From NCBI GenBank assembly GCA_017621695.1, contig JAGASP010000053.1:4787-68786 (forward strand): a stretch of 64,000 bases of DNA. The letters run 5' to 3'. The notes beneath the pieces were generated by a model, which saw nothing but the letters and a program-made list of their open reading frames with translations, ran no database searches and was not told the origin of the DNA. Position numbers and translations under genes: made by a program. Origin of the DNA: Clostridia bacterium. GTDB taxonomy: Bacteria > Bacillota > Clostridia > Oscillospirales > CAG-272. Below are positions 5,519 through 63,177 of the stretch, piece by piece (positions within the stretch are counted from its first letter, which is position 1; each line of letters begins with the position of its first letter).

Positions 5519-8389
5519 TTATTCCTTTGACTTACGGAGAGGCACGACAACTATACCGCAAAGCAGAATCAGTACGATGGCTCCACCCGAAAGCGCAGAC
5601 TTGCATCCGCCGTTAGGATCATCGGTGTTTGAATTGGACGTAGCAGCACCGGATGTATCGGTAGAATCGGTGATGTCGGTATGCGCTTTAGTAGGCTCTT
5701 CATGAGATGTTTCGATCGTTGTCTCGGTGCGTGTATCGGTGTCCACCTCGGTCTCGGGCTCAGTAGGAGCCTCGGTAGGCTCTTCGGTAGGCTCTTCGGT
5801 AGGCGTGTTCTGGGATGCGCCGGGTATGTAATTCTGATACACAAAGTTCAATCTTCCCAGAGGAGCCGCATCTCCGTCGCAGTAGAAATCTTCCATCTCG
5901 TCGTAGACGGTGTCGCTGTCAGCGATCTTGAATTCTACGTTGATCTCTCGATATTCCTCGATACCTAACATGGACAGAGGAACAGCGATCATCATTTCGT
6001 TGTCCTTCACACGGTAGGAGACTTCACCGACTGTTTCGAAGGAGAATACACCGCCTTCTCCATTGTATTTAGCCACCGTGGTGGTGAAGGCATCCTTGGC
6101 CTTATGGTTGATGATGAAGTCATAACCATACCAGCCGGTCTCGCCCGACTCGGCATCGCGGCGGTCTACGTTGACGTAGAACTGCATCCAGGAGGATTCA
6201 GCATCATACATAGAGATATCGTTTACGGTCTGCACGTAGAAGTAAAGATTTTTCGAGTCAGAGGTCACCTTGGCAGCCTTGATATCGTTGCGTCCCGAAG
6301 TATTCGTATAAGGTGTACGACCGAATCCGATAGCATCACGATCAGCTGTGTCGCCTGTGGGATCGGTGTACGTCACGGTTATGTCGTTCCATTGATCAAA
6401 CTCGCCCGTGACGTTGATGGGCTTGCGGGAATCCTGCACGATCACAGGAGCCGTCCCCTTGGCGCGTTGGACGTTATACATGAGCTGCATGTAGTAGTTG
6501 TCGAAGTAACCTCCCCGCATCATTTCGGTGTCACGGGAAAACTCCATGGAGGCGGTGTCCACGAAGTAGATCCAACCGTCTTCGGTATCAATCCGTTGTG
6601 CAACCCATTCATTCCATCCCGTAACCAAAATGATGGGTGCGTCGGTAGAAAGGGCATGATCCCACTGCGCCTGGAAATTCAGGCCGTAGTTCGTGAGGGA
6701 GGGATCCTTCTTCCAAGCCTCGTAGGCAAGCCGCAGCGTGCGGCCGATTTTCGAATTGGAGGAAGGGATGCCGTCGGGATTCACAAAGGAGCGTCCGCGG
6801 TTATTGCAGTTGTTATACAGGGAAGAGTGGGTGAAGCAGACGGTGCCGCTATGTTGGGCAACCGAGACGTTAATGGCATGGGGATTACCCTTTTCGTCCT
6901 TGAAAACACGTTGAGGCCATTCAAAATCCAGACAAGGCCAACCGTTTTCTTTGGCTTCTTCATTCGGCCACTGATTCTGCTTGACCGTAAAGAAATCATC
7001 AATGTTCGCGTCGTAGGGAGCTACGATCACAGGCTTGCCATCCAACATGAACCATGTGTCAGGGAATTTGTTCGGCTTATATATAGCTTCGTATACAGCC
7101 TTAACCGTGTTATGGGCGTTGCCGTTGGTGTAGAAAACCACCTGCGGCGCGTCAAATCCCTGCTCGTTCAGCTCGTGCAGGATCTCCATGAGCTGTAACG
7201 CGTTATGAGTATACGGAAAAGCGTTAGTCACATCGAAAAACAGGAAGTCGATATTCGCCATGGTCAGAAGCTCCGCGTGCTTACGCATGACCCACGCATC
7301 ATTTGCGTAATAGTAGCCGTACAGAGGCTCGGAAAACCAGTGCATAGCGCCCACGGGACCGTATTTGCCGCAGGACACATTTCCGGCGGCCTCAATACCC
7401 ACTTCGTCGATGATCTTTTGTAGGTCAAAGACGCCGCTGTCACCATGCTCGCCATGCCATAAGAAATAGAACAAACCGATGTATCTCTCACCGTCTTTGT
7501 ATGAGCCAACCTCGGAAGAATCGAAGAGAGGACGGTTCAGATCGTCGGTTCCCGCATAGCCACCGTAGAGATAATTGTGATCATTGGGAACCGTGTAGGA
7601 TAGCCGCTCACCGTTGACCTCATAAGAGATGGTTACGGTCTTTCCATCCTCGGAAGGGGTATACTTGAGGGTCCCTTCATGGGTGTCCTCGTCGGTTGTC
7701 TCCATCTCCTTGTAGGTAGGATCTGGCCAATCCACCTCTTTGGAGGCCTCTTCTTCAGCACGCTTTTGCTCTTCTTCCCAAGCAAGCTTGGCCATATATT
7801 CGTCGTAATCAAACCCCCGCGCTTCTTCTTCGGTTGAGAAGAACGCAACGTATTTCATGTCGATCGAGTCACCGACTGCTACGTTACCGTCCAGGGGATC
7901 AATGCGGAATAAGGTAAAGGTAGCATCATCCGGGGCATCCTTCCAAGCGTCCATGGATGCGACTGCGGTCTCCCACTCCCCGGAAGGATTCCATGTCAGA
8001 CTTTGAATGGTACCGGGGAAGCCGATCATAAAGGCGTCCGAGCGGGTGCAAACGAGTAATCCTCCGCCGGGGGCAGTGGTTCGGTAGGCAATGGCGGCAT
8101 ATTTTGCCTGAGAAGGGGAACAGGCAGGGATTTCAAGACAGGTATAAGGATCGTCTGTCACAGCGGTGAATGTGGTATATCCATCTCCCATAGAAACTTC
8201 CAGATTTGTTGTGGAAGTGAACGTGGATTGAATGGCTTCTGTTGTGAAGTCATAAAGATATACGGGGTCGGATGTGTTGAAGGTTTTATCCTCCGCAGCG
8301 GTGACGAAGGGGATGCCGATGGTGCCGGTTGCACCAAGTAACAAAACGGCCAGCATCAGAGACAGTACTGTCATCAGTTTTCTTTTCAT
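5519..8389 (-). CDS. Large secreted glycoside-hydrolase-like protein (956 aa) with signal peptide, N-terminal accessory domain, TIM-barrel-like core, acidic P/T/E linker and Cys-containing C-terminal TM anchor
   Basis: Signal peptide MKRKLMTVLSLMLAVLLLGATG. Core motifs FYFLWHGEHG, HWFSEPLYGYYYANDAWVMRKH, VTGWNEWVAQR and EFSRDTEMMRGGYFDNYY are shared with 32480-35584. The C-terminus reads GGCKSALSGGAIVLILLCGIVVVPLRKSKE. RBS AAGGAG is present. Confidence 0.8.
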   Translation of the reverse strand: MKRKLMTVLSLMLAVLLLGATGTIGIPFVTAAEDKTFNTSDPVYLYDFTTEAIQSTFTSTTNLEVSMGDGYTTFTAVTDDPYTCLEIPACSPSQAKYAAIAYRTTAPGGGLLVCTRSDAFMIGFPGTIQSLTWNPSGEWETAVASMDAWKDAPDDATFTLFRIDPLDGNVAVGDSIDMKYVAFFSTEEEARGFDYDEYMAKLAWEEEQKRAEEEASKEVDWPDPTYKEMETTDEDTHEGTLKYTPSEDGKTVTISYEVNGERLSYTVPNDHNYLYGGYAGTDDLNRPLFDSSEVGSYKDGERYIGLFYFLWHGEHGDSGVFDLQKIIDEVGIEAAGNVSCGKYGPVGAMHWFSEPLYGYYYANDAWVMRKHAELLTMANIDFLFFDVTNAFPYTHNALQLMEILHELNEQGFDAPQVVFYTNGNAHNTVKAVYEAIYKPNKFPDTWFMLDGKPVIVAPYDANIDDFFTVKQNQWPNEEAKENGWPCLDFEWPQRVFKDEKGNPHAINVSVAQHSGTVCFTHSSLYNNCNNRGRSFVNPDGIPSSNSKIGRTLRLAYEAWKKDPSLTNYGLNFQAQWDHALSTDAPIILVTGWNEWVAQRIDTEDGWIYFVDTASMEFSRDTEMMRGGYFDNYYMQLMYNVQRAKGTAPVIVQDSRKPINVTGEFDQWNDITVTYTDPTGDTADRDAIGFGRTPYTNTSGRNDIKAAKVTSDSKNLYFYVQTVNDISMYDAESSWMQFYVNVDRRDAESGETGWYGYDFIINHKAKDAFTTTVAKYNGEGGVFSFETVGEVSYRVKDNEMMIAVPLSMLGIEEYREINVEFKIADSDTVYDEMEDFYCDGDAAPLGRLNFVYQNYIPGASQNTPTEEPTEEPTEAPTEPETEVDTDTRTETTIETSHEEPTKAHTDITDSTDTSGAATSNSNTDDPNGGCKSALSGGAIVLILLCGIVVVPLRKSKE

Positions 8390-20645: not shown

Positions 20646-22328
20646 ATGAAAAAAGCACTTTCTATTTTAATGATCCTGTTGATGATCATTTCGACCATGC
20701 CTGTAATGGCAATTCATTCTTCAGCCGCCGAAGTGGAGGGTGATTGGACCACCTACCGAGCATCTGACGGCTATAATCCTCCGCCCGAAGGGGAAGATCC
20801 CTCCTACACTCCTGCCCCGGGCTATGAGTATACGGATGACGGTTTCCATATGATCTCCCCCGACTATACCAACTGCCCCACCTACGGCACCGCTCAAACC
20901 AAGGATCCCGTGGATCTGGATGACGGCGTTTATATGGAGGTCCGCGTGGATAATTTCACCTACGGCGGCGAGGATGGGAAGGCAGACAACTGGGTCTCCT
21001 TCAGCATTTGGAATCAGCAAAGCCTGGCTCAGGGTCACACCTCGGGTTACGGTCAGGGTTGGTTCAGCTTGAACCGTTTCAGCAATGGCACCTCTGATGC
21101 CGGTGCGATCGCCCAAAGCTTTATTTCGGGCGAGCCCTCGACCATGACGCTGGTATCACAGCCTCAAATTGATCCCAAGCTGGATGAAAACGGCAAGGAG
21201 ATCTTCACGTTCTCGGTTACAAAGAGCGGAGACAACTACATCATCAGCATTTGCGACGTTGTCGTCAGCTCTCCCGCCGTGACCAAGCATCTGAAAGCGC
21301 TGAATGAGCACGGCGAGTTTTATGTGGGCGTATCCTTCTGCTCCAGCCAGACAAACGGCGTTGTCGAGGCTACGATTTTGAAGTACGGTACCTCTAAAGA
21401 GGATGCCTCCACCCCCGTTGGCTCGGATTCAAAGGCTCCCGAGGCCAATCCCGTTGTGATCGCGGAGCTGGCGGATTCCTCTACCATTGAAGCAGGCAAG
21501 CCTTGTTTGCTCTTTGATGCAAACGGATCGTCCTGGAGTGGCAAGCTGGGCGTGCAGGGCATGACGATGGATGCCATGGGTAACGGTGCTTTCCGCATCT
21601 CTCCCACCGAAGCTACGGGCTTCCATACGTGGAACATCAGAAAAACCATGTCTTATCAGGCAAAGGATTTCCCCGTCGTGGCATTTTTGATTGAAGATCC
21701 CAATGCGATCATCGAAAAGGGTGAGCTGCAATATTCCACAGGTCAGTACGTCATGGCCGACGGTGTTCATAAGGTTCCGTTTAACATTTGGGACGAGGCA
21801 AACCGTTCCTACGGTGAGAGCGGTTGGACGCTTTTCGTATTGGATATGCAAAAGCTTTTGGATGAGGAAACCTATGCAGACGCGTGGGTAGACCGCATCA
21901 ACAGTCTGCGATTCGATTATTTGGAGATGTTTTTGGATACCGATGCAGAAAAGAACACGTTCAATTTCCATTGGGCAGGCATCTTCCGCTCGGTTGAGGA
22001 AGCTTATGCGTACAGTGACGCATATGTCATCACGCAAGATCCCGATTTAGTCCCCGAAACCGAGGAGTCTATCGAGACACCTTCGGAAGCGCCCTCTGAA
22101 GCGCCCACAGTAACACCCTCGGAAGAAACCTCCGCAACGCCCTCGGAAGAAACCTCCGACAAGCCGATGGAAGGCACGACTACCTCTCCTGCCGGAGAAG
22201 TGACCCAAGAGCAAAATAACGAAAATGATAGCAAGCAAGATGATACAGGCTGTTCTTCCGCTGTAGGTTCAGTTGCTGTATTGTTTGCAGCGATCGCCGC
22301 TGTTATCGCTCTTAAAAAGAAAGACTGA
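20646..22328 (+). CDS. Secreted cell-surface protein of unknown function with signal peptide, LamG-like N-domain, a second domain shared with two other secreted proteins, acidic PSE linker and Cys-containing C-terminal anchor
   Basis: Signal MKKALSILMILLMIISTMPVMA. The C-terminus reads DDTGCSSAVGSVAVLFAAIAAVIALKKKD. RBS AAAGGAG. Confidence 0.75.
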   Translation: MKKALSILMILLMIISTMPVMAIHSSAAEVEGDWTTYRASDGYNPPPEGEDPSYTPAPGYEYTDDGFHMISPDYTNCPTYGTAQTKDPVDLDDGVYMEVRVDNFTYGGEDGKADNWVSFSIWNQQSLAQGHTSGYGQGWFSLNRFSNGTSDAGAIAQSFISGEPSTMTLVSQPQIDPKLDENGKEIFTFSVTKSGDNYIISICDVVVSSPAVTKHLKALNEHGEFYVGVSFCSSQTNGVVEATILKYGTSKEDASTPVGSDSKAPEANPVVIAELADSSTIEAGKPCLLFDANGSSWSGKLGVQGMTMDAMGNGAFRISPTEATGFHTWNIRKTMSYQAKDFPVVAFLIEDPNAIIEKGELQYSTGQYVMADGVHKVPFNIWDEANRSYGESGWTLFVLDMQKLLDEETYADAWVDRINSLRFDYLEMFLDTDAEKNTFNFHWAGIFRSVEEAYAYSDAYVITQDPDLVPETEESIETPSEAPSEAPTVTPSEETSATPSEETSDKPMEGTTTSPAGEVTQEQNNENDSKQDDTGCSSAVGSVAVLFAAIAAVIALKKKD

Positions 22329-32479: not shown

Positions 32480-35400
32480 TTACATGAGTGCACGATACAG
32501 GGTCGTCAGCACGTCCTTGTCCTCTATGGGAGCGGAGGAGATCACTACCAGTCCGTCCTCAGAGATCGTCACAGCCTTGCCTGCTGCCGCAATGACCTCG
32601 GCAGGCATAACGTAGGTAATGCCGTATTGATCGTAGGTGTCCAGGCCGTCGCAAGACACGCCAATCACGTTCTCCACAAAGTTCTTGGGGAGATAGTACT
32701 TGTCGCCGCGACCCATGAGCACAGCCTTGGTGCTGGAGGCATCCAGTCTCACCTGCTTGCCGCCGGCGAAGGCATTGTAAGATCCCGCCTTGAGCACGAT
32801 CATATCCTCGGTCAGGCACTCGGGGAGCTTGACCTCAGTTTTTACGGTGGTGTAGCGGTAGTTGAAGCGGTCGTTGGGTGCGGTATCACCCTGATCGAGG
32901 AATTGCATCACGTTGCCGTCTGCTACGGAATTGTCCGCCCACTTGAAATCAAAGGTATCACCAAGATTCATCACGGAACGAGCCACCTTGATCTGAAGAA
33001 TATTGCCGCGCAGATCGTATTCTGCTTCACCGACAGATTCCAATTCCCAAGTATCCTGACCCACGAACTTTTCAACAGAGACCTTGCCGTCCTTCTGAGA
33101 GCGGTTGATGAGGTAGTCGTAGCCGTACCAGCCGGTCTCACCGTTGCAATCCGCGTCGACGAAGAGATTCATCCAGTTGGTGCCTTCGGGAGCTGTGATA
33201 TCCTCGGCACACTCTGCGTAGAAGTAGAGGTTTTCGGGATCTGCGGAAACCTTGCAGGTCACAAAATCGTTACGACCCGAGGTGTTGGTGTAGCGGAAAT
33301 CGCCTACGTAAGAGAAGTGATCGCGATCCACGGTATCACCCTCATAATCGCGGTACTCGGGGCCTACGATGTTCCACTGACCGTGGTCACCCTTGATGTC
33401 GATCGCCCACTGCTCAAAGGCAGCTTCCTGCGCACGGGAACCCTTGTACTGGCGGATGTTCTGTACCATTTGGTAGAAGTAGTTGTCATTGAATCCGCCG
33501 GTCATAGGCTCGATGTCACGGGAATACTCGGTGTTGAAGGCGTCCACATAGTACCACTGATACTTGGGGTTCTTCTCGTCCACCTTGTACTCACCCGCGA
33601 TGGTCTGCCCCTGTGCGGGATTACCCGAACCGCCACCCCAACGGCCTGCCCACCACTCGTTCCAACCGGTGATCATGATGAGGGGAGGATTCTTTTCCAT
33701 GGCGTAATCAAAATGCTCCTGGAAAGCAAGACCCAGACCGGAAGTCGTATTCATGAGCGCAAAGCCGAAGTCCCAATCGCCCTCATGTGCGGGAATACCG
33801 TTGGCATGGGTGTAGCTGCGGCCTGCGTTCGTTCCGTTGCTTCCGTTTGCCCAGAAGCCGCACATGACGATCATCTGCTCTACCTCACCGGAGGGGGAGA
33901 GGCCGGGCTTCTGGGGATACATATCAGCCCATGCCCAACGGCCATGACCGCGACGGGAGGTATACCATTCATCGTTGGTAAATGCCCAGCTCTGACGGGC
34001 GGTGAAGAAATCCGTGATCTCGGAGGAAAGGGTCTTGGCCAAAGAATCGGGATAGAAGATCAGGGGCTTGCCGTCCCAGTAGAACCACATATCCTTGTAT
34101 TTGTCAACGGAATAGTAATTGTTCCAAAGGAAATTCAGGGAGGAGGCGGCCAAAGAATCGGTATTGCCGCAATGGAAGCAGATCTGGGGCACCTGATAGC
34201 CCTCAGCACGCATTTGACTCCAGACACGGAGAAGTGCTTCCAGATTTCTCTCGTAAATGATACCGTTGGTAGCATCCACGTAGATAAAATCCACGCCTGC
34301 TTCGGCCAGCATATAGCCGTGCTTGCGGATGACCCATTCGTCATCGGAATTATAGTAGCCAAAGTAAGGCTCAGCCCAATAGTGAGCAAATCCCAGAGGA
34401 CCCTGAGGGACGAGATCCCACACGGCATCCACGCCGCCCTCCAGGTAGGCCTTGGTATGGTCGAAGAGGGGATTCTGCCCCTGCTCGGTGGCATTGTGCC
34501 ACATGAAATAGAAGATACCGACCTTCTTATCGGTAGCGGCGATGGTGGTTGTACCCGTGGGAGTTACGCGTCCCACATCATCGGTGGCGACCCACGTGTC
34601 GGAAAAAACGTCACGGGAGGTCAGCATATCAATGGGAGTGGAGGTCGTCACGGTAGAGGAACCCGAGACCTTGATGTCGGAAATTTTGACGTTGTTTTTC
34701 ATATGATGTGTCCATAGACGTGCATATCCCGTTTTGCTGACGGGCTCCGACAGCTTTTCCACGATGTCGGGTTGCTCGCTTCCTTCCAGATAGAATTCCA
34801 ATTGCGTGTCTGTGATCTTGAGGGTAGCCAGGGGTGTCTTTACGCCATCCTTGTCATAGAACATGGAGATGATATTGGTGGAAGGATCATCCTCCACGTA
34901 CACAAGCTCGCCTTGGGCAAAGTCCACGGGAGCATTGACGAGTGTGCAATTGGGCCATGTGCCGGTACGCATACCGATCTTGTTATCCTTCATGAGGATC
35001 CAGACGCGCGCGGACTCATGGTTGGGCGCAGCGCCCGTACCGGACAGGCGAAGGCCAAAATAAGTGGCGTTATAATTGGCATCGGGATCGGAAGAGGTAA
35101 GCTTGAACTGATATTTTGCAATGACATCTTCGTTAAACTTCAGACCGATTCCCAAGGATGCGACGGTCTTAGGAGGAAGAATGACCGTGCTTCCCTTGGC
35201 CGTTCCCTCGCCGATGGCGAAGATGGTGCTGGATTCTTTTACAGAAGTGAACTCGTACTCTTCGGTGATCGTCTTGTCAACCAAAGAAGCCTCCTGTCGC
35301 TCGAAGGTAAGGTCTGCCGTGGAGGAGAAGGGGCCTTCCTGGGGCTTGGTGCGATCCGGCTCGGCGGGGGGGAGGGGTTCTTCCGAGGAAGTGTCGCTGT

Positions 35401-35584
35401 TGTCATCGGTGGATCCCTCGGGTACAGTCGTGTTTTCCTCGGATGCAGCGCCGGTGGAAGCTTCGGTCAAAGCCTCGGTGGAAGCCTCTGTTTCCTGCGG
35501 TGTTGCCTGGGTACAGGCAAAGCTGCCAAGCAGCATGGTGGCCGTCAGTAAGCATAAAACGTATTTTTTGAATAAAGCTCGCAT
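32480..35584 (-). CDS. Large secreted (possibly lipoprotein) glycoside-hydrolase-like protein, 1034 aa, with LamG-like N-domain, TIM-barrel-like core, conserved C-terminal module and copper-amine-oxidase-N-like stalk
   Basis: Signal MRALFKKYVLCLLTATMLLGSFAC. Core motifs FYFMWH, HYWAEPYFGYYNSDDEWVIRKH, ITGWNEWWAGRW, EYSRDIEP. ATG 35584 has RBS AAAGAGG. The ORF-track TTG at 35614 is less likely. Confidence 0.8.
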   Translation of the reverse strand: MRALFKKYVLCLLTATMLLGSFACTQATPQETEASTEALTEASTGAASEENTTVPEGSTDDNSDTSSEEPLPPAEPDRTKPQEGPFSSTADLTFERQEASLVDKTITEEYEFTSVKESSTIFAIGEGTAKGSTVILPPKTVASLGIGLKFNEDVIAKYQFKLTSSDPDANYNATYFGLRLSGTGAAPNHESARVWILMKDNKIGMRTGTWPNCTLVNAPVDFAQGELVYVEDDPSTNIISMFYDKDGVKTPLATLKITDTQLEFYLEGSEQPDIVEKLSEPVSKTGYARLWTHHMKNNVKISDIKVSGSSTVTTSTPIDMLTSRDVFSDTWVATDDVGRVTPTGTTTIAATDKKVGIFYFMWHNATEQGQNPLFDHTKAYLEGGVDAVWDLVPQGPLGFAHYWAEPYFGYYNSDDEWVIRKHGYMLAEAGVDFIYVDATNGIIYERNLEALLRVWSQMRAEGYQVPQICFHCGNTDSLAASSLNFLWNNYYSVDKYKDMWFYWDGKPLIFYPDSLAKTLSSEITDFFTARQSWAFTNDEWYTSRRGHGRWAWADMYPQKPGLSPSGEVEQMIVMCGFWANGSNGTNAGRSYTHANGIPAHEGDWDFGFALMNTTSGLGLAFQEHFDYAMEKNPPLIMITGWNEWWAGRWGGGSGNPAQGQTIAGEYKVDEKNPKYQWYYVDAFNTEYSRDIEPMTGGFNDNYFYQMVQNIRQYKGSRAQEAAFEQWAIDIKGDHGQWNIVGPEYRDYEGDTVDRDHFSYVGDFRYTNTSGRNDFVTCKVSADPENLYFYAECAEDITAPEGTNWMNLFVDADCNGETGWYGYDYLINRSQKDGKVSVEKFVGQDTWELESVGEAEYDLRGNILQIKVARSVMNLGDTFDFKWADNSVADGNVMQFLDQGDTAPNDRFNYRYTTVKTEVKLPECLTEDMIVLKAGSYNAFAGGKQVRLDASSTKAVLMGRGDKYYLPKNFVENVIGVSCDGLDTYDQYGITYVMPAEVIAAAGKAVTISEDGLVVISSAPIEDKDVLTTLYRALM

Positions 35585-35610
35585 ATGATACCTCTTTGGG
35601 ATAAATTTGA

Positions 35611-37119
35611 TCAATCGTTTTGGGCATACAATTCATTGTAATAGATGTTGTTTTCCTCGGTAACAACGGGACGGTAGGCGAAAAGGAAGGGGGCGTTTTC
35701 GTAGCTGATGGGCTCCAGCGTGGGTTGAACGGACATGATACGGCTGTCCGAGCCGTGATCGTAGCGTAAGGCCTGACCGTTTCTTGCGTCCTCGGCCAGC
35801 ATGAAGACGTGCATGGGGCCGCCGTCGACGGGATGGGGATTGACAAAGATGATGTCGCCCGCCTGCAGATCCTCGATTCGGGTGATCTTTATAAAGCCCA
35901 TATCTTGGCACCATGAATAGAGATTGGACACCACACAGCCCTGTATGATGGGCTGATCCGTAAAGCCCGCGCGATAGAGGACCCAGTCCACCAGGCGGTC
36001 ACAGCTGGTGCGCAGGGGACGGTGGTTAATGCCGGGATTTGTACAGGAATCACCGTACTTGAAATTCATCTCGCGAGCGTACTCGGTAACGTACTTGCCC
36101 TCGCGCAAAAGGTTGCATTGCAGCAAGGAATACGGTGTATAGACGATTTCTCCCTTTTCGTTGGCTACGCGATATCCAAACTGCTTTTGTCTGTCACAGC
36201 GCTTGATGGCACTGTCCAAAGAGGAATAAGCCTTCCCCAACACGTTGTCCTCGGGAATATGGAGCCGATCCTCATAGAGACAAACGTAAAAGCCCTTTTC
36301 CACTTCGGGTGCGGGTGTCACTTCTCCACGATCGGCTGCAATGAAGGCCTCTGCCTCTGCACGGTCCGCGCAGAAGGCGATCTTTTCCAAAAGAAACGTA
36401 TCTCTGGCTTCCAGGAAATTTGTGTAATCCAAGCGGAAGCCGTCGTTGAAGCGCGTGGACCAACCGGGGGTATCTTCATCTGCTTCGAAAATGATATACT
36501 GCCAAACGCGTTCACCGAAGAATTCGGAGTCTCCTCCGTAGACCTCGGTCAAGGAGTAACCGGCACTGGCAGACCTGCGATCTTCGGTCGCGTAAAACAT
36601 CTCAAAAGCACCGCCCCACTCGGCCTGTACCTTGAAGACAATGACCTTTTTCTCTTCGGGTGTAAAGGGCGTATATGTTTTACCGTCGGCGGAGGTGGGG
36701 TATCCTGCGGCTTTGTACATTTTGCTCACGTTCCATTGCACGCAAGGATCCCGAGACTCACTGCGTCCGATAAATTTCACGCCTTCATCGCACATCTCGG
36801 GATAAGCACCCGATCCGCGAAGAAAAGCGGCTCTGAACAAATCCTCGTTAAAGGTGGTCAGATCAATACGGGTGGGATCGGGAATCAAATAGGGAGACGC
36901 TGTTTCAGTCTCGGTTTCCGCTTGGGTCGGCGCCTCGGTTTGCTCCTCTGTCGGAGTTTCGGTTTCTTTTTCAGGTTGGGCTTCGGCTTGCGTTGCATCA
37001 GGGAAAGCTTCGCCGGTCGCGGTCTCCTCGGGGGAAGATGCGGGTGGGGCTGTGCAGGCAGCCAAAATCATCAGAAAGCAGAGAAGTCCTGCTACCATAT
37101 ATAAATGCCGTTTTTTCAT
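35611..37119 (-). CDS. Lipoprotein with acidic T/E linker, a domain shared with two other secreted proteins, and a C-terminal papain-fold (NlpC/P60- or CHAP-like) domain
   Basis: Lipobox ILAAC. The candidate catalytic Cys lies in SCDRLVDWVLYRAGF and the His in GDIIFV...MHVFML. RBS GAAGGA. Confidence 0.65.
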   Translation of the reverse strand: MKKRHLYMVAGLLCFLMILAACTAPPASSPEETATGEAFPDATQAEAQPEKETETPTEEQTEAPTQAETETETASPYLIPDPTRIDLTTFNEDLFRAAFLRGSGAYPEMCDEGVKFIGRSESRDPCVQWNVSKMYKAAGYPTSADGKTYTPFTPEEKKVIVFKVQAEWGGAFEMFYATEDRRSASAGYSLTEVYGGDSEFFGERVWQYIIFEADEDTPGWSTRFNDGFRLDYTNFLEARDTFLLEKIAFCADRAEAEAFIAADRGEVTPAPEVEKGFYVCLYEDRLHIPEDNVLGKAYSSLDSAIKRCDRQKQFGYRVANEKGEIVYTPYSLLQCNLLREGKYVTEYAREMNFKYGDSCTNPGINHRPLRTSCDRLVDWVLYRAGFTDQPIIQGCVVSNLYSWCQDMGFIKITRIEDLQAGDIIFVNPHPVDGGPMHVFMLAEDARNGQALRYDHGSDSRIMSVQPTLEPISYENAPFLFAYRPVVTEENNIYYNELYAQND

Positions 37120-40309: not shown

Positions 40310-41974
40310 TTACTCCGCGCCTTCTTCCCTTCTCTTTCGAGCACACCGCGCGGCGATCAGGCCGCACAGCAACAGCGGCAGCGCGACACTTGCCGTCACA
40401 GCGCCGCAGCCCTCGGAAGAGGTGGCTTCGGTTTGGGTTTCGGAGGCTTCTACAGAAGGAATCTCAGACTGTGCTTCGGTAGCCTCGGGTACGGGAGCGT
40501 CGGTAGCCTGCTCGGTAGGGGTCTCCGTGGGTTGCTCGGTCGGTGCTTCCGTGGGCTCCTCCGTGGGTTCTTCGGTCGGCTCTTCTGTGGGCTCTTCGGT
40601 ATCCACGGGAGGATCATCGTAGCGCAAACGGTAGAGCTTACCCTCGCCGGTGCGGAAGGTATCCTTCAGCATACCCTCTTCAAACATAACGGGGATATAC
40701 TCACCGATGAAGGGATCGAAATATTCCAGCCACTTTACGTCGCTCGAAATATCCACGGTAAACTTACACGTCGCGGATTTTCTTTTCGTGTTTTTATTGA
40801 AGATCATGATATACTGATCATCGCCCTCCTTAGGCTCCATCACGCTGATAACAAACTCGTTTCTGCCGCTGGGCTGGAGGAAGTAATCCTCGGGCAGGAG
40901 TTCTACCCCGTTTGTGCCCTTGTCGGTATGGTAAGCATGGGCGGCATCCAGATTCATGAGAAGAGAGGACAGGCCGCGAACCTCCCAGTTCAGCTCGCTG
41001 AAGGCTTCAAAAAGCTCAGGGTCGCGGATGGTACCGTCACGGTAAATGATGGAATCGCGGAAGCCCTCGCCCTCGGTATCCGAAGAGCCGGGGCAGACCA
41101 GATTGAACCAGGAAAGCGCCTTAAATCCATAGGCCAGGTAGCCATAGACGTTCCAACGCATCTCTCCCTCGGTGGGCATACGGGTACCGTTCCACGCGGT
41201 AGACTGGGGATATGCATGGGTCTTGAGCTTGCCGTTTTCATAGGCAACAGAACGGATCACCTCCATATCGGCGAAAATGTCGGTCAGAACCACGCCACCG
41301 TCACGGAAGGGATAGTAGTCGTGGGACAGATAATCGATATTTTCAGCGCCAATGGTCTCTACGAAATTGGTGACGTGCTCACGGTAAGTACCGCCCAGCG
41401 CCCACTCGGGAGCGTAGCTGGGGAACAGGTTGACCAGCGGATAACGGGTCGCGTCTGCCTCGCGGTAGAGCTTCACAAGCCGGGCGATCTCGGGGAACTT
41501 ATCGGCGGTAGGCTCGTCTACCAGGTGATAACCGATGCAGTGCTCCTTGCCTGCGGCATACTCTACGCCGATGGCGATATTCTTCTCTGCCATGCTGCCG
41601 TTCATCTGGTAGACCATATTGCGCTTGGCATACTGCTCCTCAATATTGTTCCAGTAATCGGCATCAAACATTGCCCCCGAGCCGAAATTCCGGGGGAACA
41701 TATTGAAGTTGATACCCGCCGCGGCCATCTGGTCGAGCTGGTATTCATAGCTGTCTTTTTCAAAGGAGTAGAAGGACACCCAAGAGCCGATGAGCAGATC
41801 GTCGGCGGTAACGTCGTCGGCCATGATCTTCTCGCGGTATGCGGCTTTCTTGGCTTCATATTCTGCATCGCTCTCGGTCTCGTCTGCCGAGACTGCAAAA
41901 ACAGACATGGTCAGAAGGCCGAAAATCAGGGTAAGCATGAGGGTCAGAGCTTTTGTCAGATACGAATGTTTCAT
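40310..41974 (-). CDS. Secreted TIM-barrel (clan GH-A-like) glycoside-hydrolase-like protein with PTEE-repeat linker and Cys-containing C-terminal anchor
   Basis: Signal MKHSYLTKALTLMLTLIFGLLTMSVFA (RBS GAAAGGAAG). Contains YHLVDEP and DYLSHDYYPF. The C-terminus has (EEPT)n followed by SSEGCGAVTASVALPLLLCGLIAARCARKRREEGAE. Confidence 0.7.
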   Translation of the reverse strand: MKHSYLTKALTLMLTLIFGLLTMSVFAVSADETESDAEYEAKKAAYREKIMADDVTADDLLIGSWVSFYSFEKDSYEYQLDQMAAAGINFNMFPRNFGSGAMFDADYWNNIEEQYAKRNMVYQMNGSMAEKNIAIGVEYAAGKEHCIGYHLVDEPTADKFPEIARLVKLYREADATRYPLVNLFPSYAPEWALGGTYREHVTNFVETIGAENIDYLSHDYYPFRDGGVVLTDIFADMEVIRSVAYENGKLKTHAYPQSTAWNGTRMPTEGEMRWNVYGYLAYGFKALSWFNLVCPGSSDTEGEGFRDSIIYRDGTIRDPELFEAFSELNWEVRGLSSLLMNLDAAHAYHTDKGTNGVELLPEDYFLQPSGRNEFVISVMEPKEGDDQYIMIFNKNTKRKSATCKFTVDISSDVKWLEYFDPFIGEYIPVMFEEGMLKDTFRTGEGKLYRLRYDDPPVDTEEPTEEPTEEPTEEPTEAPTEQPTETPTEQATDAPVPEATEAQSEIPSVEASETQTEATSSEGCGAVTASVALPLLLCGLIAARCARKRREEGAE

Positions 41975-57693: not shown

Positions 57694-58839
57694 ATGCAAA
57701 ACGTACATGAAAATCTTCTCCACGTCACCAAATACGAGGTGCTGGACAAGCTCCCCGACCTCTTTACCTTCGACAACGGAGATCCCGTAAAAACCCCCGA
57801 GGATTGGAGCAAGCGCCGTACCGAGATCTACAAAACCGCCGTAGAGCTGCAATACGGTACCCTGCCCCCTGCCCCCGAATTTTTGGAGGTGGAGCCCCTT
57901 TATATCGGTGCCAAGGCTCACTCTTACCGCATTCATACCGGCACGAAAGCCCGTCCCGTCAGCTTTCTCATGAAGCTGATCCTGCCCGCATCAGGGAACA
58001 ACTTCCCTGCCATCGTGGACGGCGATATGTGCTTCCCCTATCATCTGAACAACGATTATCTCGCCGCCGCCACCGACGAGGGCGTGGCCTGGGTGTTCTT
58101 TGACCGCACTGAGCTCGCGCACGACATCCAAGGCGAGGGTCGCCGCAAGGGTCAGCTGTACGACACTTACCCCGACTGCACCTTCGGCGCTCTGGGCGCG
58201 TGGGCGTGGGGCTATTCCCGTTGCGTGGATGCCCTGGAGATCATCTGCCAAAAGCAGGACAAGCCCCTCATCGACCTCTCTCTCATCGCCTTTTCGGGTC
58301 ACTCCCGTGGCGGCAAGACCGCCGCATTGGCGGGAGCTGTGGATCAGCGCGCCGCCGTGGTCAATCCCAACGAGACCTGCGCAGGGGCTTGCGGCTGTTA
58401 CCGCATCCATATGGAGGGCTACTGCGACGGCATCCCTCCCTTCCGCTCCGAGACCTTGCGGGATCTCTGGAACAATTTTTCCTTCTGGATGGGTCCCGAC
58501 CTTGGCGACTACGCCGACAGAGAAGCCGAGCTTCCCTTTGACGCCCATTTCTTGAAGGCTCTTGTGGCTCCCCGCGTGCTCTTCGTTTCCGAGGCGGCAG
58601 GAGATATCTGGTCCAATCCCGTCGGATCCTGGATGACCTCCATGGCCGCGCAAAAGGCATATGATTTTCTGGGTGTACCCGAAAATCTTTACTGGTATTT
58701 CCGCGAGGGGACACATTTCCACCACGTTCAGGACGTAAAGATGCTGGTCAATATCATCAGGCGGCAGAGAGATCCCTCTGTCCCCATGGCCGAAGGATTT
58801 TTCAAAACTCCTTTCCCGCCCTTTGACCCGATCTACTGA
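57694..58839 (+). CDS. CE15-like (glucuronoyl-esterase-type) alpha/beta hydrolase
   Basis: FSGHSRGGKTAALAGAVDQR resembles the CE15 GCSRxGK nucleophile motif. RBS AAAGGAG. Confidence 0.65.
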   Translation: MQNVHENLLHVTKYEVLDKLPDLFTFDNGDPVKTPEDWSKRRTEIYKTAVELQYGTLPPAPEFLEVEPLYIGAKAHSYRIHTGTKARPVSFLMKLILPASGNNFPAIVDGDMCFPYHLNNDYLAAATDEGVAWVFFDRTELAHDIQGEGRRKGQLYDTYPDCTFGALGAWAWGYSRCVDALEIICQKQDKPLIDLSLIAFSGHSRGGKTAALAGAVDQRAAVVNPNETCAGACGCYRIHMEGYCDGIPPFRSETLRDLWNNFSFWMGPDLGDYADREAELPFDAHFLKALVAPRVLFVSEAAGDIWSNPVGSWMTSMAAQKAYDFLGVPENLYWYFREGTHFHHVQDVKMLVNIIRRQRDPSVPMAEGFFKTPFPPFDPIY

Positions 58840-58850
58840 AAGGAACCGAC

Positions 58851-59396
58851 ATGAAGCTCTACATCGTTCGACACGGACAATCGGCATGGAACGCAGAGCA
58901 TCTTGTCTGCGGCTCGACAGACGCGCCCCTTACCGAAAAAGGGCACGCACAGGCCGCAGAAGTCGCCCGTACCATTGCCGAAATTCACAAAGAACATCCC
59001 ATTGATCTCATCATAGCGTCTCCCCTGCAACGGGCGTTGGATACAGGCCGTGCCATTCAGGTCGCCTGCGGAGACATCCCGCTCATCACCGACGATCGCA
59101 TTCGGGAGATCGACTTTGGGGAAAGCGAAGGTCTTTCCACCCGTGATCAGGATTTTCAGAACAGAAAAGCTCAATTCCCCTACGTTCACGGCGAGGGGGA
59201 GTCTATGCTTCGTTTTGTTCATCGCGTCTACAGCTTTCTTGACGATATCCGTGTGCGCTATGCCGACAAAACGGTGCTCCTCGCCTGTCACAACGGCATC
59301 ATCCGCGTCGCGGAATCCTACGTGCATAGCATGACCAACGAGGAATTTATGAGCTACGTTGTCAAAAATGCAACTGTATCTCAATATGACTTATAA
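58851..59396 (+). CDS. Histidine-phosphatase superfamily protein (phosphoglycerate-mutase-like)
   Basis: MKLYIVRHGQSAWN (RHG motif). 181 aa. Confidence 0.85.
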   Translation: MKLYIVRHGQSAWNAEHLVCGSTDAPLTEKGHAQAAEVARTIAEIHKEHPIDLIIASPLQRALDTGRAIQVACGDIPLITDDRIREIDFGESEGLSTRDQDFQNRKAQFPYVHGEGESMLRFVHRVYSFLDDIRVRYADKTVLLACHNGIIRVAESYVHSMTNEEFMSYVVKNATVSQYDL

Positions 59397-59409
59397 GGAG
59401 TGTCCCATC

Positions 59410-60633
59410 ATGTACCGCAAATTATTTACCGCTGTTTTATTCATTCTGTGTCTCGCAACCGCCGCAGTCGCCTGTAGCCAACAAGAAGAACCGCTTGCGT
59501 CCGAAAGCGACGTAAGCTCCGAGACGACCGTCGCCGTCACCGAAGCTGAAACCGAGATCTTCCCCGAAACGCAGGCAGAAACCGAAGCCGCCACCGAAAC
59601 GGAAAACAAGACCGAAACAGAGACTGAAACCGAGATCGGAACAGAAGCCATCACCGAGGAGGAAACGACCGTGACCGTCATCTACGAAACCGTTCAGAAT
59701 CCCATCACCCCCACAGGCGCTGACCCATGGGTTACGCGCCACGGCGACAAATACTACTACTGCTATTCCAGCCCCGTCTGGTTCTTTGGCGGTGTTGGTG
59801 TGGCCGAGATCCCCTCCATCGACAAGGTCAGCGCCGAGGGAGGCAGTCAGGTCTACACCGCTCCCGCCGAGGAGGGCGCTGACCTGTCCCACTCCTTCAA
59901 CTACTGGGCACCCGAGCTGCACTACATCCAAGGTGCGTGGTACATCTACGTGGCCTGCGACGACGGCAACAACGAGACCCACCGTATGTATGTCCTGAAG
60001 GGCACAACACAGAACCCCACCGATCCCTTTGAGTACGTGGGGCAGATCACCGACCCCACCAATAAGTGGGCCATCGATGGCTCGGTTATGGAAATCGGCG
60101 GCGAACTGTACTTCATCTGGTCGGGCTGGGAGGGTGACGTCAACGTAGCCCAGCATATCTACATCGCCCACATGAGCAACCCCTGGACCATCGACAGCGA
60201 GCGGGTCATGCTCTCCACCCCCGAGTACGCCTGGGAGAAGAACGGCGATCCCCTCATCAACGAAGGCCCCACAGCCCTCCAGCACAACGGTAAGACCTTC
60301 ATCGTGTACTCCGCCTCGGGCAGTTGGACGGATGACTACTGCCTCGGTATGCTGACCCTCACGGGGGACAATCCCATGGATCCCACCTGCTGGGCAAAGT
60401 CGGACAGCCCTGTGTTTGAGAAAAGATTCGGTACCTGCTTCGGTCCGGGTCATGCCTCCTTCACCACCGCCGTGGACGGCAGTGTCTGGATGATCTACCA
60501 CGGCAACCTCCAGTCGGGCACAGGCTGGGAGGGTCGCTCCATCTGGATCGCCCCCGTAACCTTTGATGAAAACGGAATCCCGGATTTCGGACAGCCCCAA
60601 AAAGAAGTGCAATTCCCTGTAGCAATTCAATAA
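59410..60633 (+). CDS. GH43-family glycoside hydrolase, lipoprotein with acidic ETE linker
   Basis: Lipobox AAVAC. NYWAPELHYIQGAWYIYVA, GPTALQHNGKTFIVYSASG. RBS AAGGAG. Confidence 0.85.
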   Translation: MYRKLFTAVLFILCLATAAVACSQQEEPLASESDVSSETTVAVTEAETEIFPETQAETEAATETENKTETETETEIGTEAITEEETTVTVIYETVQNPITPTGADPWVTRHGDKYYYCYSSPVWFFGGVGVAEIPSIDKVSAEGGSQVYTAPAEEGADLSHSFNYWAPELHYIQGAWYIYVACDDGNNETHRMYVLKGTTQNPTDPFEYVGQITDPTNKWAIDGSVMEIGGELYFIWSGWEGDVNVAQHIYIAHMSNPWTIDSERVMLSTPEYAWEKNGDPLINEGPTALQHNGKTFIVYSASGSWTDDYCLGMLTLTGDNPMDPTCWAKSDSPVFEKRFGTCFGPGHASFTTAVDGSVWMIYHGNLQSGTGWEGRSIWIAPVTFDENGIPDFGQPQKEVQFPVAIQ

Positions 60634-60675
60634 ACAGCGACTCCCTTACAATCCAAACCGAGAAAGGATCTTACC

Positions 60676-63177
60676 ATGAAAAAGTTTCACCTGATATCCA
60701 ACGCCCACATCGACCCCGTTTGGCAATGGGAGTGGGAAGAAGGCGCTGCCGCAGCCGTTTCCACCTTCCGCTGTGCGGCATCCTTCTGCCGCGAATTTGA
60801 CGGCTATATCTTCTGCCACAACGAGTCCCTCATTTATCGCTGGATAGAAGAATATGAGCCTTCCCTGTTTGATGAAATTCAAGAGCTTGTGAAGCTCGGC
60901 AAATGGCACATCATGGGCGGCTGGCACGTTCAGCCCGACTGTAATCTGCCCTCGGGTGAAGCCTTTGCCCGTCAGATCGCGGAGGGACGTAAATATTTCA
61001 AGGAAAAGTTCGGCAAAGCTCCCACCACCGCCATCAACTTCGACCCCTTCGGACACACGCGGGGACTGGTACAGATCATGGCCAAATCCGGCTATGACAG
61101 CTATCTCTTCTGCCGTCCCGGTGCCGATCAGTGTGCTCTGCCCGACGAAACCTTCACATGGGTCGGCTACGACGGCTCCAAGATCACAGGTCAACGTGCC
61201 GCCGAGGGCTACGGATCGGGATTGGGTCAGGCACTCAACGCCATACGCAGTGTAGAAGGACGCGACACCAAGGGTCGCCCCAACTTCCGTCTCTGGGGCG
61301 TAGGTGACCACGGCGGCGGTCCTTCCCGCCAGGACATCAGCGCCATCAACGAGTATATCAGGGAGTGTCGGGAAAAAGGCATTGAGGTGCTTCACTCCAC
61401 CCCTGAGGATTATTTTGCGGATGTCAGGGCTTATCTTGCAGAAAAGGGCGAGACCCTTCCTGAGCACAAGGGAGACCTCAACCTTTGGGCACCCGGCTGC
61501 TACACCAGCCAAGTGCTGATCAAGCAGAAATACCGTCAGACCGAGAATATGCTGTTCTCCACCGAAAAGATGTATGCCCAACTGACCACCCTCGGACGGG
61601 CAGACTATCCCGAAAAGGAATTCGGCGAGGTGCTCTACGATATGCTGACGGTACAGTTCCACGACGTTCTCCCGGGCTCTTCGGTGCGCCCCGCAGAAGA
61701 AATGGCGGTTCGGATGCTGGATCACGCCTTGGAAATTCTGTCCCGACTCCGTGCCCGCGCCTTCTTCGCGCTGGCGGAAAACCAACCCGCGGCTGCGGAA
61801 GGAGAGATCCCCGTACTCGTCTACAATCCCCATCCTTACGAGGTCACAGGGGACTTTGATTGTGAATTCATGCTGGCCGACCAGAACTGGAGCGACAGCT
61901 TCACCATGCCCTCGGTCTATCAGAACGGCGTATATCTCCCCTCGCAATGCGAAAAAGAGAATTCCAACATTCCGCTTGACTGGCGCAAGCGTGTGACCTT
62001 CCGCGCAACTCTTTCCCCTATGGCCATGAACCGCTTTGACGTGCGGCTCAATCGCATCGCCAAAAAGCCTGTTCCCGACGAGATCTTGCTGGGCGGTGAT
62101 GACCCCGAGTTCTTTGTATACAAGACCCCGTATATGACGGTAGAGATCGACCGCAAGAGCGGACTTCTGCATAGTTTTTCCGCCAACGAAACAAATTATC
62201 TCGGTGCAGGTGCCTGCGGCATTGACGTCATGCAGGATCTGGAAGACGCGTGGGGCATGACCAAAACCTGTTGGAAGAATAAAATCGGCGCATTCCGTCT
62301 GCTCTCCACAGAGGAAAGCACGCGCTTCTCCTCGCAGGATCAACCGCTCCCTCCCATCCGCATCATCGAGGACGGCGACGTTCGCACGGTGGTAGAAGTA
62401 ACGCTGGGATATGACCACTCCCGCGCTGTGTTGCGTTACAAGCTCTCCAAGCACGCCCCCACGGTGGACGTAGACCTCATCGTTCACAACTGTGAAACCC
62501 GAAAAATGTTCAAGCTCGCGTTGCCCATTGCCCTGTCCCAGCCCACACCCGCCTTTGAGGTCGCATTCGGTGAAGAACCCATGCGCACGGACGGAACAGA
62601 ATGCGTAGGCCACAAATATATCACCGTCACGTCTCCCGAGGGTGGCCGCTTGACGATTGATAATCAAGGCACTTACGGCGCATCCTATGAAAACGGACTC
62701 TTGTATATCACCCTGCTTCACAGCCCGGGATATACCACGCATCCGCTGGGAGACCGTCACGTGCTTCCCACCGACCGCTGGACGGAGCACATGGAGCAAG
62801 GCGAACGCCGCTTCTCCTTCCGCATCACAGCGGGTCAGAGCAGCGATACCGACATGGCACGCAAGGCGCTCGTCTTCAACGAAGCCCCCATTCCCCTCTC
62901 CTTCTTCCCCAAGGGCGGCAACACCGATGGGGCGATCTGCGGTGACGCTTCCTTTGCAACCCTGTCGGGGAATGCCGTCGTCATGACAGCGCTGAAGCCG
63001 ATGGAAAACGGTCTCATGGTACGCCTTTTCAATCCCTTGAACCAAGACACGGGTTGCACGCTTGTCTGCTCTTCTCTCGGCATCTCCACAAAGCTTGCCT
63101 TTACCCCCTACGAAGCCAAAACCCTGAGAATTACCTCGGACACCGTTGTGCATTGCTCCATGGATGAACTGCTTTGA
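60676..63177 (+). CDS. GH38-family alpha-mannosidase, cytoplasmic
   Basis: HLISNAHIDPVWQWEWEEG, GGWHVQPDCNLPSGEAFARQI. 833 aa. Confidence 0.9.
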   Translation: MKKFHLISNAHIDPVWQWEWEEGAAAAVSTFRCAASFCREFDGYIFCHNESLIYRWIEEYEPSLFDEIQELVKLGKWHIMGGWHVQPDCNLPSGEAFARQIAEGRKYFKEKFGKAPTTAINFDPFGHTRGLVQIMAKSGYDSYLFCRPGADQCALPDETFTWVGYDGSKITGQRAAEGYGSGLGQALNAIRSVEGRDTKGRPNFRLWGVGDHGGGPSRQDISAINEYIRECREKGIEVLHSTPEDYFADVRAYLAEKGETLPEHKGDLNLWAPGCYTSQVLIKQKYRQTENMLFSTEKMYAQLTTLGRADYPEKEFGEVLYDMLTVQFHDVLPGSSVRPAEEMAVRMLDHALEILSRLRARAFFALAENQPAAAEGEIPVLVYNPHPYEVTGDFDCEFMLADQNWSDSFTMPSVYQNGVYLPSQCEKENSNIPLDWRKRVTFRATLSPMAMNRFDVRLNRIAKKPVPDEILLGGDDPEFFVYKTPYMTVEIDRKSGLLHSFSANETNYLGAGACGIDVMQDLEDAWGMTKTCWKNKIGAFRLLSTEESTRFSSQDQPLPPIRIIEDGDVRTVVEVTLGYDHSRAVLRYKLSKHAPTVDVDLIVHNCETRKMFKLALPIALSQPTPAFEVAFGEEPMRTDGTECVGHKYITVTSPEGGRLTIDNQGTYGASYENGLLYITLLHSPGYTTHPLGDRHVLPTDRWTEHMEQGERRFSFRITAGQSSDTDMARKALVFNEAPIPLSFFPKGGNTDGAICGDASFATLSGNAVVMTALKPMENGLMVRLFNPLNQDTGCTLVCSSLGISTKLAFTPYEAKTLRITSDTVVHCSMDELL

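Follow-up and report, generated by a model that had tools for sequence, protein, structure and literature searches.

Cys-containing C-terminal sorting signals, together with the CPBP-family proteases called 'myxosortases', were recognised between 2023 and 2025 in Myxococcota, Synergistota, some Proteobacteria and Thermococcales. The acyltransferase acting on the MYXO-CTERM signal is unidentified, and an 'Lgt-like' enzyme has been the leading guess (PMC11980579). The window analysed here, a stretch of 64,000 nucleotides, corresponds to positions 4787-68786 of contig C25 in the source genome G000, a 2.62-Mb assembly of 127 contigs that is 90.6% complete. It encodes three exported proteins ending in a tail made of an acidic linker, a Gly-Cys signature, a hydrophobic helix and a basic cluster, hereafter the GC tail. 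We examined the extent of this tail in the genome and in related genomes, along with a gene pair located on another contig (C40) that encodes a paralogue of the prolipoprotein diacylglyceryl transferase Lgt (Lgt2) and a CPBP protease. Our preferred reading of these data is that Lgt2 probably lipidates the Cys of the tail and that the CPBP then removes the helix, the protein staying lipid-anchored.

A scan of the C-termini of all open reading frames (ORFs) detected the GC tail on 41 ORFs genome-wide, and a hidden Markov model (HMM) built from 37 GC tails (alignment A1) gave 42 matches in the genome. The layout is an acidic linker, the signature G-C-[GAS]-[SA]-x-[VLI], a helix of about 20 residues and a cluster of Lys and Arg (K/R); the Cys is present in 41/41 tails and is preceded by Gly in 39 of them. 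An unbiased set was also assembled, with Cys ignored, from the 52 ORFs of at least 200 aa in which a signal-peptide-like N-terminus is combined with an uncharged run and a basic tail at the C-terminus. GC opens the uncharged run in 33 of these ORFs, three more have near-variants (SC, EC and one GC missed through an Asn), and about 16 of the 52 exported proteins have a C-terminal helix without GC. The GC count expected in this set from the dipeptide frequency (0.0019) is approximately one (binomial P ~1e-43). Lack of GC enrichment among C-terminal transmembrane proteins had been set beforehand as the outcome that would speak against the original prediction, and the 33 cases observed are the reverse of that outcome. 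In 38 tails for which 'GC' was the sole imposed feature, position +1 is G, A or S in 36, position +2 is S or A in 38, and position +4 is V, L or I in 32. The distance from the Cys to the first K/R is 20-24 residues in all 38 tails, and this fixed spacing indicates that the Cys lies at the outer boundary of one membrane span.

The proteins carrying the tail are diverse. A signal-peptide-like N-terminus was recognised in 36 of the 41; the remaining five are three contig-edge fragments and two proteins with long N-terminal extensions, which arise because the most upstream start codon was taken. Their ectodomains fall into 18 unrelated BLAST clusters with a Pfam content that includes GDPD, GH2, CBM9, CBM4_9, F5/8-C, Exo_endo_phos and Big_3, so that the ectodomains recognised by Pfam are predicted surface hydrolases and glycan binders. 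One family, represented in the window by a 956-aa protein, comprises eight members with GC tails, and at least nine others have an N-terminal lipobox instead of a tail (for example, window positions 32480-35614, with 'LLGSFAC'). Since a single ectodomain family contains members of both kinds, the two anchoring devices appear to be interchangeable. The suggestion of a portable module, which certain paralogues replace by a lipobox, is thus borne out by the 18 unrelated families and by this alternation. Altogether, the observation made in the window was confirmed and is larger than first noted. As an additional observation, the family of the 956-aa protein comprises more than 20 paralogues in the 2.6-Mb genome (e.g., at window positions 5519-8389, 32480-35614 and 29-1042), some GC-tailed, some lipoproteins and some neither, and represents a large expansion of an uncharacterised extracellular domain without a Pfam match.

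Full proteins and ten isolated tails were compared with the curated models of NCBIfam release 20 at E<=10, and no sorting-domain model for the tail signature was reached at its cut-off, which answers the proposal to compare the tails with curated C-terminal sorting models. The strongest tail matches (11-19 bits) fell on the tail regions of MYXO-CTERM models that cover whole proteins, and weak matches were obtained to MXAN tails, Synerg-CTERM, Rumino_NPXTG, GVDTG-CTERM, PVV-CTERM and Heimdall-CTERM. Assignment to MYXO-CTERM proper was rejected, as TIGR03901 gave no match for the ten tails at E<=10 and the C40 protease scored 23.7 bits on the myxosortase model NF040914, with a cut-off of 100. 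Synerg-CTERM (TIGR04564), the best direct CTERM-model match for two tails, was also discarded at 12.6 and 10.8 bits (cut-off 22.5). One tail reached the cut-off of the LPXTG_anchor model TIGR01167 (17.0 vs 15.9 bits), through its helix and basic part only. The absence of an LPXTG motif, noted for the window, holds for the tails and, as regards genuine LPXTG-type tails, genome-wide; no sortase gene (PF04203) was found in the 90.6%-complete assembly either, and the sortase/LPXTG route was rejected on both counts. For a Gram-positive-type genome without a sortase, surface display seems to rest on N-terminal lipoproteins and the GC tail. Literature searches on C-terminal lipoproteins, Lgt paralogues and CTERM signals in Clostridia returned no description of the system. 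These data indicate that the GC tail ('GC-CTERM') is a predicted, uncatalogued Cys-type tripartite C-terminal sorting signal.

The gene order on contig C40 is a GC-tailed protein (57971-59551), the Lgt paralogue Lgt2 (59645-60520) and the CPBP protease (60522-61385), whose start codon lies one base past the lgt2 stop codon. Lgt2 is a protein of 291 aa scoring 101.6 bits on PF01790 (gathering threshold 24.9), and the protease scores 62.5 bits on PF02517 (gathering threshold 22.4). The genome contains four CPBP genes (PF02517), none of them on C25, and the C40:60522-61385 protein is the only one of the four whose best NCBIfam match is the myxosortase core NF040914. This protease has hundreds of close homologues in metagenome-assembled genomes (MAGs) of uncultured Oscillospiraceae, Ruminococcaceae and Clostridia. 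The C40 locus is contained in 24 sequencing runs, every one of them a gut or sheep-gut DNA metagenome.

Gene linkage was examined in 79 CPBP loci, each from a different species genome. The lgt2 gene lies directly upstream of the CPBP gene and on the same strand in 65 of the loci, mostly with an overlap of 4 or 8 nt, and this arrangement is found in 54/54 loci whose CPBP is at least 46% identical. A GC-tailed gene is present in the flank at 20/79 loci, usually directly upstream of lgt2 as in G000. A search with Lgt2 and CPBP joined end to end, followed by a whole-library search with P0121, revealed single-ORF fusions of both proteins: P0121 (536 aa) and P0126 (539 aa), on three independent contigs, and P0209 (557 aa), a divergent fusion with 37% identity and another linker, located between housekeeping genes on three further contigs. 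The gene preceding one of the fusions encodes PyrI, not a substrate. In a maximum-likelihood tree, all 67 operonic Lgt2 sequences and P0121/P0126 form one clade with support 100/96 (P0209 was not included), apart from canonical Lgt and from non-operonic Lgts that share with Lgt2 two Cys residues in the Lgt signature (Cys/Cys type).

Both enzymes look active, judging from the residues they keep. In the CPBP, E139, E140, R144, F173, H177 and H221 are invariant in 15 orthologues and position 225 is D or N, so that the motifs EExxxR, FxxxH and HxxxD/N are kept across these sequences. The best PDB matches of its AlphaFold2 (AF2) model (pLDDT 79) were SpdC (6u0o) and MmRce1 (4cad), the only two CPBP structures in the PDB, with probabilities of 1.00 and 0.99 and modest TM-scores of 0.37-0.51; both came from fold comparison only, the CPBP sequence profile giving no match against the PDB. 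The Lgt2 model (pLDDT 85) had E. coli Lgt (5azb) as its sole match (E 1.4e-6, TM 0.57). In E. coli numbering, used for all Lgt residues, Lgt2 keeps Y26, G142, R143, G145, G154, Y235, R239, E243 and R246 in 65/65 orthologues. The transfer chemistry of E. coli Lgt is carried by R143, R239, E243 and R246, E151 binds phosphatidylglycerol in a 'selection' site, the E151A and E151Q variants are inactive, and the active site faces the outer leaflet (PMC4728403). Lgt2 thus keeps the catalytic core with a changed donor-selection site, a condition that is compatible with a new specificity and is also a genuine uncertainty. Of the three Lgt genes in the genome, the one on C39 is canonical (178 bits on TIGR00544) and those on C94 and C40 are divergent; a housekeeping role for Lgt2 was rejected, since it fails TIGR00544, its version of the signature G-R-L-G-N-F-I-N-G-E-L-W-G is incomplete and it belongs to a separate clade.

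The original prediction proposed to scan related genomes with the tail HMM and to profile candidate processing enzymes alongside. Two to 62 tail matches were found in each of the 24 other genomes of the genus, 23 of which contain the CPBP orthologue, the exception being an 88%-complete assembly; with G000 included, the CPBP is present in 24/25 genomes and the tail in 25/25. The 16 genomes sampled from the order's other families, one per family, have neither CPBP orthologue nor tail, except for one marginal tail match (E 0.009). Because phylogeny confounds this comparison, the search was widened to 400 genomes from 217 genera, sampled across the class, using the profile of the C40:60522 CPBP (E<=1e-20) and with the tail HMM (E<=1e-3). 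Besides G000, CPBP orthologues were detected in four genomes only (G220, G429, G297 and G471), and genuine tail matches in three of those same four only: G220 (17), G429 (16) and G471 (1). Two further genomes gave marginal tail matches through the helix and basic part only. The association between tail and CPBP is significant (Fisher P = 4.7e-9), and the co-occurring genomes are from three other families; the sister genera sampled from those families have neither tail nor CPBP. In addition, 35 of the 38 genomes reached via CPBP loci contain a tail match at E<=0.01, with counts that fall with CPBP distance. The other three CPBPs of G000, profiled in the relatives set (the 24 genus genomes and the 16 from other families), were rejected as discriminating markers, all being genus-wide. 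The Lgt2 profile also matches non-operonic Cys/Cys-type Lgts (158-254 bits, about 35% identity, no adjacent CPBP) in genomes without tails or CPBP, and for this reason Lgt2 serves as a clean marker only when restricted to the operonic clade. The view that the tail is a Cys-bearing processed tripartite signal of the MYXO-CTERM type, not a plain anchor, was supported by all the tests run, with cleavage and lipidation as its predicted steps.

Support for the C40 Lgt2-CPBP pair as the machinery comes from homology, gene linkage, fusion and co-occurrence, from which we infer the following steps. GC-tailed proteins would be exported by Sec through the N-terminal signal peptide predicted in their sequences. 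The C-terminal helix would then halt transfer, with the K/R cluster kept on the cytoplasmic side and the Cys placed at the external face of the membrane, as the 20-24-residue spacing suggests. Lgt2 (C40:59645-60520), on the basis of homology and gene linkage, would put a diacylglyceryl lipid on the Cys thiol, and the CPBP/Rce1-type protease (C40:60522-61385), by analogy with Rce1 and the myxosortase MrtX, would cut just after the lipidated Cys and free the helix and basic tail. The product would be a mature enzyme or glycan-binding protein on the surface of a single-membrane cell, with a C-terminal lipid anchor and the acidic stalk as a spacer. Such a pathway would be the mirror image of the N-terminal Lgt/Lsp lipoprotein route, which G000 uses for paralogues of the same proteins. 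Indeed, the motif C-[GAS]-[SA]-x-[VLI], running from the Cys towards the membrane, is an approximate mirror image of the lipobox [LVI]-[ASTVI]-[GAS]-C (PMC12462473).

Several points weigh against lipidation by Lgt2 followed by CPBP cleavage. The tail helix is inverted relative to that of a lipoprotein signal peptide and, to our knowledge, no known Lgt accepts a helix in this orientation; moreover, it is from sequence that we infer both the cleavage and the lipidation of GC-tailed proteins. Lgt2 departs from the Lgt signature, with Cys replacing N146 and E151 in 65/65 orthologues and Tyr replacing H103 in 60/65 (F or L in the rest), and it scores 70 bits on the TIGR00544 equivalog (cut-off 118.9), so its lipid donor, or even its activity, could differ. 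The CPBP itself is far below the cut-off of the myxosortase core (23.7 bits vs 100), and no lgt gene adjoins the CPBP gene in 14/79 loci, all of them among the most distant (CPBP identity below 46%). As to co-occurrence, G220 contains at least 17 tails and a CPBP (47% identity) and has no gene of the Lgt2 clade, its best Lgt match reaching 112 bits; G297 has a distant CPBP homologue with no detectable tails; and the other three CPBP genes of G000 are also genus-wide in the relatives set. Regarding G220, a 94%-complete assembly, either Lgt2 is missing from the assembly or a housekeeping Lgt can serve.

Part of this evidence could be accommodated if the CPBP cleaved the tail and Lgt2 did not lipidate the Cys. 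The protein would then be released or passed to the wall or another acceptor, or else the housekeeping Lgt or an unrelated enzyme would modify the Cys, with Lgt2 as a scaffold or pseudo-enzyme partner. We consider this unlikely. The loss of N146 and of E151, a residue needed in E. coli Lgt (PMC4728403), would agree with it, as would the tails and CPBP of G220 without Lgt2, the best structural match of the CPBP model to SpdC, a CPBP scaffolding another enzyme, and the ability of MrtX to cut its substrate in E. coli without a dedicated partner (PMC11980579). However, the residues held catalytic (R143, R239, E243, R246, Y26 and Y235) are kept in 65/65 Lgt2 sequences, and the sampled members of the Lgt2 clade are all coupled or fused to a CPBP, a costly upkeep for an inert partner. 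Furthermore, other Clostridia have non-operonic Lgts, possibly working enzymes, with the same Cys/Cys variant.

A permanent, uncleaved type I membrane anchor, with the Gly-Cys kept for helix capping, reversible S-acylation or a metal or disulfide contact and the Lgt2-CPBP pair serving something else, has little need of an invariant G-C, of small residues at +1 and +2 and of a spacing fixed at 20-24 residues over 18 unrelated families. A helix followed by a K/R cluster is by itself a competent stop-transfer anchor, and the approximately 16 of 52 exported proteins with a C-terminal helix without GC are in line with this use. Nevertheless, the tail co-occurs with one CPBP subfamily over three families and is absent in sister genera, tailed genes adjoin the Lgt2-CPBP pair in 20 loci, and all known tripartite signals with an invariant Cys are tied to a CPBP protease (bioRxiv 10.1101/2023.06.07.544157), which makes this explanation quite improbable.

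Finally, it is very unlikely that the tail is a real processed tag handled by machinery other than the C40 pair (one of the three other genus-wide CPBPs or an unrecognised family), with the linkage reflecting shared lineage history, because, although the four CPBP genes are all genus-wide and mostly missing in the 16 genomes sampled from other families of the order, and a second CPBP (C40:48582-49577) is located at 2-14 kb from the pair in most genus genomes, this second gene is syntenic within the genus only, and the C40:60522 CPBP is the only one with the myxosortase core as its best NCBIfam match, the only one coupled or fused to an Lgt paralogue, the only one with tailed flanking genes outside the genus (in L086 and G429/L088) and, as the sole CPBP profiled class-wide, one that tracks the tail there.

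In the window itself (Table 1), the three tails claimed in the original prediction were recovered, all three ORFs being found with ends identical to those quoted, and each tail is preceded, as described, by an acidic low-complexity linker of P/T/E/S/D composition (73, ~70 and 69 aa). The three proteins are otherwise unrelated, as had been proposed, their ectodomains belonging to three different BLAST clusters. Pfam recognised no domain in the three ectodomains, PT repeats being found in the linker only; the search with the 560-aa protein gave two sub-threshold matches, one of them the PT repeat of its linker. This protein has five GC-tailed paralogues elsewhere in the genome, and the 570-aa protein has a GC-tailed paralogue on C105 (68% identity). 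The third ORF had been placed at 40310-41974; its tail was as described, and position 41974 corresponds to an internal ATG, the ORF reaching 42022 from the first start codon. The ATG at 41974 is nonetheless likely the true start, as it yields a cleaner predicted signal peptide. The statement that no processing enzyme lies in the window stands for CPBP, Lgt and sortase, as the matches found in the genome are all off C25, while exosortase and rhombosortase were not searched.

Table 1. Position and characteristics of the GC-tailed proteins, their linkers and tails, and a lipobox-bearing paralogue in the window
Feature	Position	Strand	Remarks
Gene of exported 956-aa protein	5519..8389	-	Signal peptide, ectodomain, acidic linker, GC tail; end ...DDPNGGCKSALSGGAIVLILLCGIVVVPLRKSKE
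Low-complexity P/T/E/S/D linker ('stalk'), 73 aa, net charge -17	5609..5827	-	
GC tail GCKSALSGGAIVLILLCGIVVVPLRKSKE, signature G-C-K-S, helix, basic end	5522..5608	-	Tail HMM match G000:C25:10308-10421, E 7e-11
Gene of exported 560-aa protein	20646..22328	+	End ...QDDTGCSSAVGSVAVLFAAIAAVIALKKKD
Acidic P/T/E/S linker, ~70 aa	22038..22247	+	Hand count from translation; PT-repeat match below cut-off
GC tail GCSSAVGSVAVLFAAIAAVIALKKKD	22248..22325	+	Tail HMM match G000:C25:27007-27111, E 2e-11
Gene of exported protein, 570 aa from first start codon	40310..42022	-	End ...SSEGCGAVTASVALPLLLCGLIAARCARKRREEGAE
PT-repeat acidic linker, 69 aa, net charge -23	40412..40618	-	Pfam PT repeat 29.9 bits
GC tail GCGAVTASVALPLLLCGLIAARCARKRREEGAE	40313..40411	-	Tail HMM match G000:C25:45108-45227, E 6.4e-11
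Paralogue of 956-aa protein (31% identity over 609 aa)	32480..35614	-	N-terminal lipobox …LLGSFAC|TQ, no GC tail

Other observations concern the surroundings of the C40 cassette and additional Lgt-related proteins. Immediately upstream of the GC-tailed gene of the cassette (C40:54196-57897) are tightly packed genes for a MoxR-type AAA ATPase and a DUF58 protein, both named from their sequences, and for a polytopic protein with a DUF4129-like C-terminus that scores below threshold (18.7 bits vs a cut-off of 24.8). The second CPBP on this contig (C40:48582-49577), which has ABC_perm_CPBP as its best NCBIfam match, is found 2-14 kb from the Lgt2-CPBP pair in most genus genomes, a synteny absent beyond the genus. 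The third Lgt paralogue of the genome (C94:15167-15967, 266 aa) has the same Cys/Cys signature variant as Lgt2, ARVGCFFAGCCYG; its gene comes after that of a small membrane protein rich in Gln/Asn, neither a CPBP nor a tailed gene adjoins it, and the protein lies outside the operonic Lgt2 clade. In other genomes, about 20 clusters of Clostridia MAG proteins of 640-656 aa (P0160-P0188) contain galactokinase domains (PF10509, PF00288 and PF08544) alongside an Lgt domain (PF01790) sharing 40-48% identity with Lgt2. The association of a membrane lipid transferase with a cytoplasmic sugar kinase is unexpected, and may be a real fusion or a gene-calling artefact.

Extended beyond this genome, the proposal is that gut and rumen Clostridia run a dedicated 'mirror-image lipoprotein' pathway, in which an Lgt paralogue would diacylglycerylate the Gly-Cys and a coupled or fused CPBP would remove the helix, generating C-terminally lipid-anchored surface enzymes; for this wider claim we regard the case as evenly balanced. 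If true, a Cys-type C-terminal sorting system would be recognised for the first time in a phylum with a single membrane, and the acyltransferase step still missing for MYXO-CTERM and related signals would have been identified genetically, also for the first time. The Lgt2-CPBP pair is a small two-gene target, located beside substrates, that makes the question of the Cys-modifying enzyme testable. Around 40 surface proteins of G000 that degrade or bind glycans appear to depend on the GC tag. As the tag matches no curated model, current pipelines annotate tailed proteins simply as membrane proteins; with models for both the tail and the Lgt2/CPBP pair, many surface proteins in uncultured Clostridia of gut and rumen would be annotated anew, and it would be easier to predict which enzymes are surface-displayed.

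Compared with known systems, the GC tail has in common with LPXTG proteins the C-terminal stalk, helix and basic tail of Gram-positive surface proteins, whereas G000 has neither the LPXTG motif nor a sortase gene. The eukaryotic and archaeal CAAX pathway resembles the proposed one in that a separate enzyme, a prenyltransferase, lipidates a C-terminal Cys and a CPBP-family protease, Rce1, cuts directly after it (PMC11980579). That pathway, however, takes place on the cytoplasmic side and involves a 4-residue tail and a prenyl lipid, whereas the GC site would be extracytoplasmic, with a helix-containing piece of 24-31 residues removed and a membrane glycerolipid as the predicted lipid donor. Like the proposed pathway, the N-terminal lipoprotein route (Lgt and LspA) relies on an enzyme of the Lgt family, on a Cys with small residues next to it at the outer face and on a helix removed after lipidation by an intramembrane protease, with the same end product, a lipid-anchored surface protein, and G000 appears to use both devices in one paralogous family. 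The GC signal differs in being at the opposite end of the protein with the opposite helix orientation, in that a glutamic-type CPBP would cut after the Cys whereas the aspartic LspA cuts before it, and in that Lgt2 forms a separate clade, has Cys at 146 and 151 and is below the cut-off of the lgt equivalog.

The closest resemblance is with the signals processed by myxosortases. Synerg-CTERM and JDVT-CTERM are also Cys-containing tripartite tags, each with its own CPBP subfamily, and in JDVT-CTERM the substrate gene adjoins the protease gene. They differ in phylum and in the scores, which are far below cut-off (those of Synerg-CTERM given above; MrtJ, 20 bits vs 75; MrtS not among the matches of the C40 CPBP at E <= 0.01), and no Lgt partner has been described for those systems (bioRxiv 10.1101/2023.06.07.544157). 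MYXO-CTERM with MrtX/MrtC/MrtP (Myxococcota; TIGR03901, NF040914) has, like the GC tail, an invariant Cys in a G/C-rich signature followed by a helix and a basic cluster; each genome encodes dozens of unrelated exported proteins with the tag, preceded by a disordered linker, and a co-occurring CPBP/Rce1-family intramembrane protease, in the case of MYXO-CTERM a housekeeping one. The order of events, lipidation of the Cys and then cleavage after it, would also be the same (PMC11980579; bioRxiv 10.1101/2023.06.07.544157). In contrast with MYXO-CTERM, the host of the GC tail is a single-membrane member of the Clostridia, with no outer membrane or type II secretion step, and its basic cluster is Lys-rich instead of Arg-rich. 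Likewise, MrtX is never found beside a substrate and its acyltransferase is unidentified, whereas the GC-tail protease is coupled or fused to a dedicated Lgt paralogue, often beside a substrate. Altogether, the GC tail shares architecture, protease family and presumed order of events with signals of the MYXO-CTERM kind and falls below the curated scores of those families. The C40:60522 CPBP belongs to PF02517 and Lgt2 belongs to PF01790 at the family level, and the tail has the attributes of a Cys-type tripartite signal: a Cys, a helix and a basic cluster, carried by many substrate families and tracking a CPBP protease.

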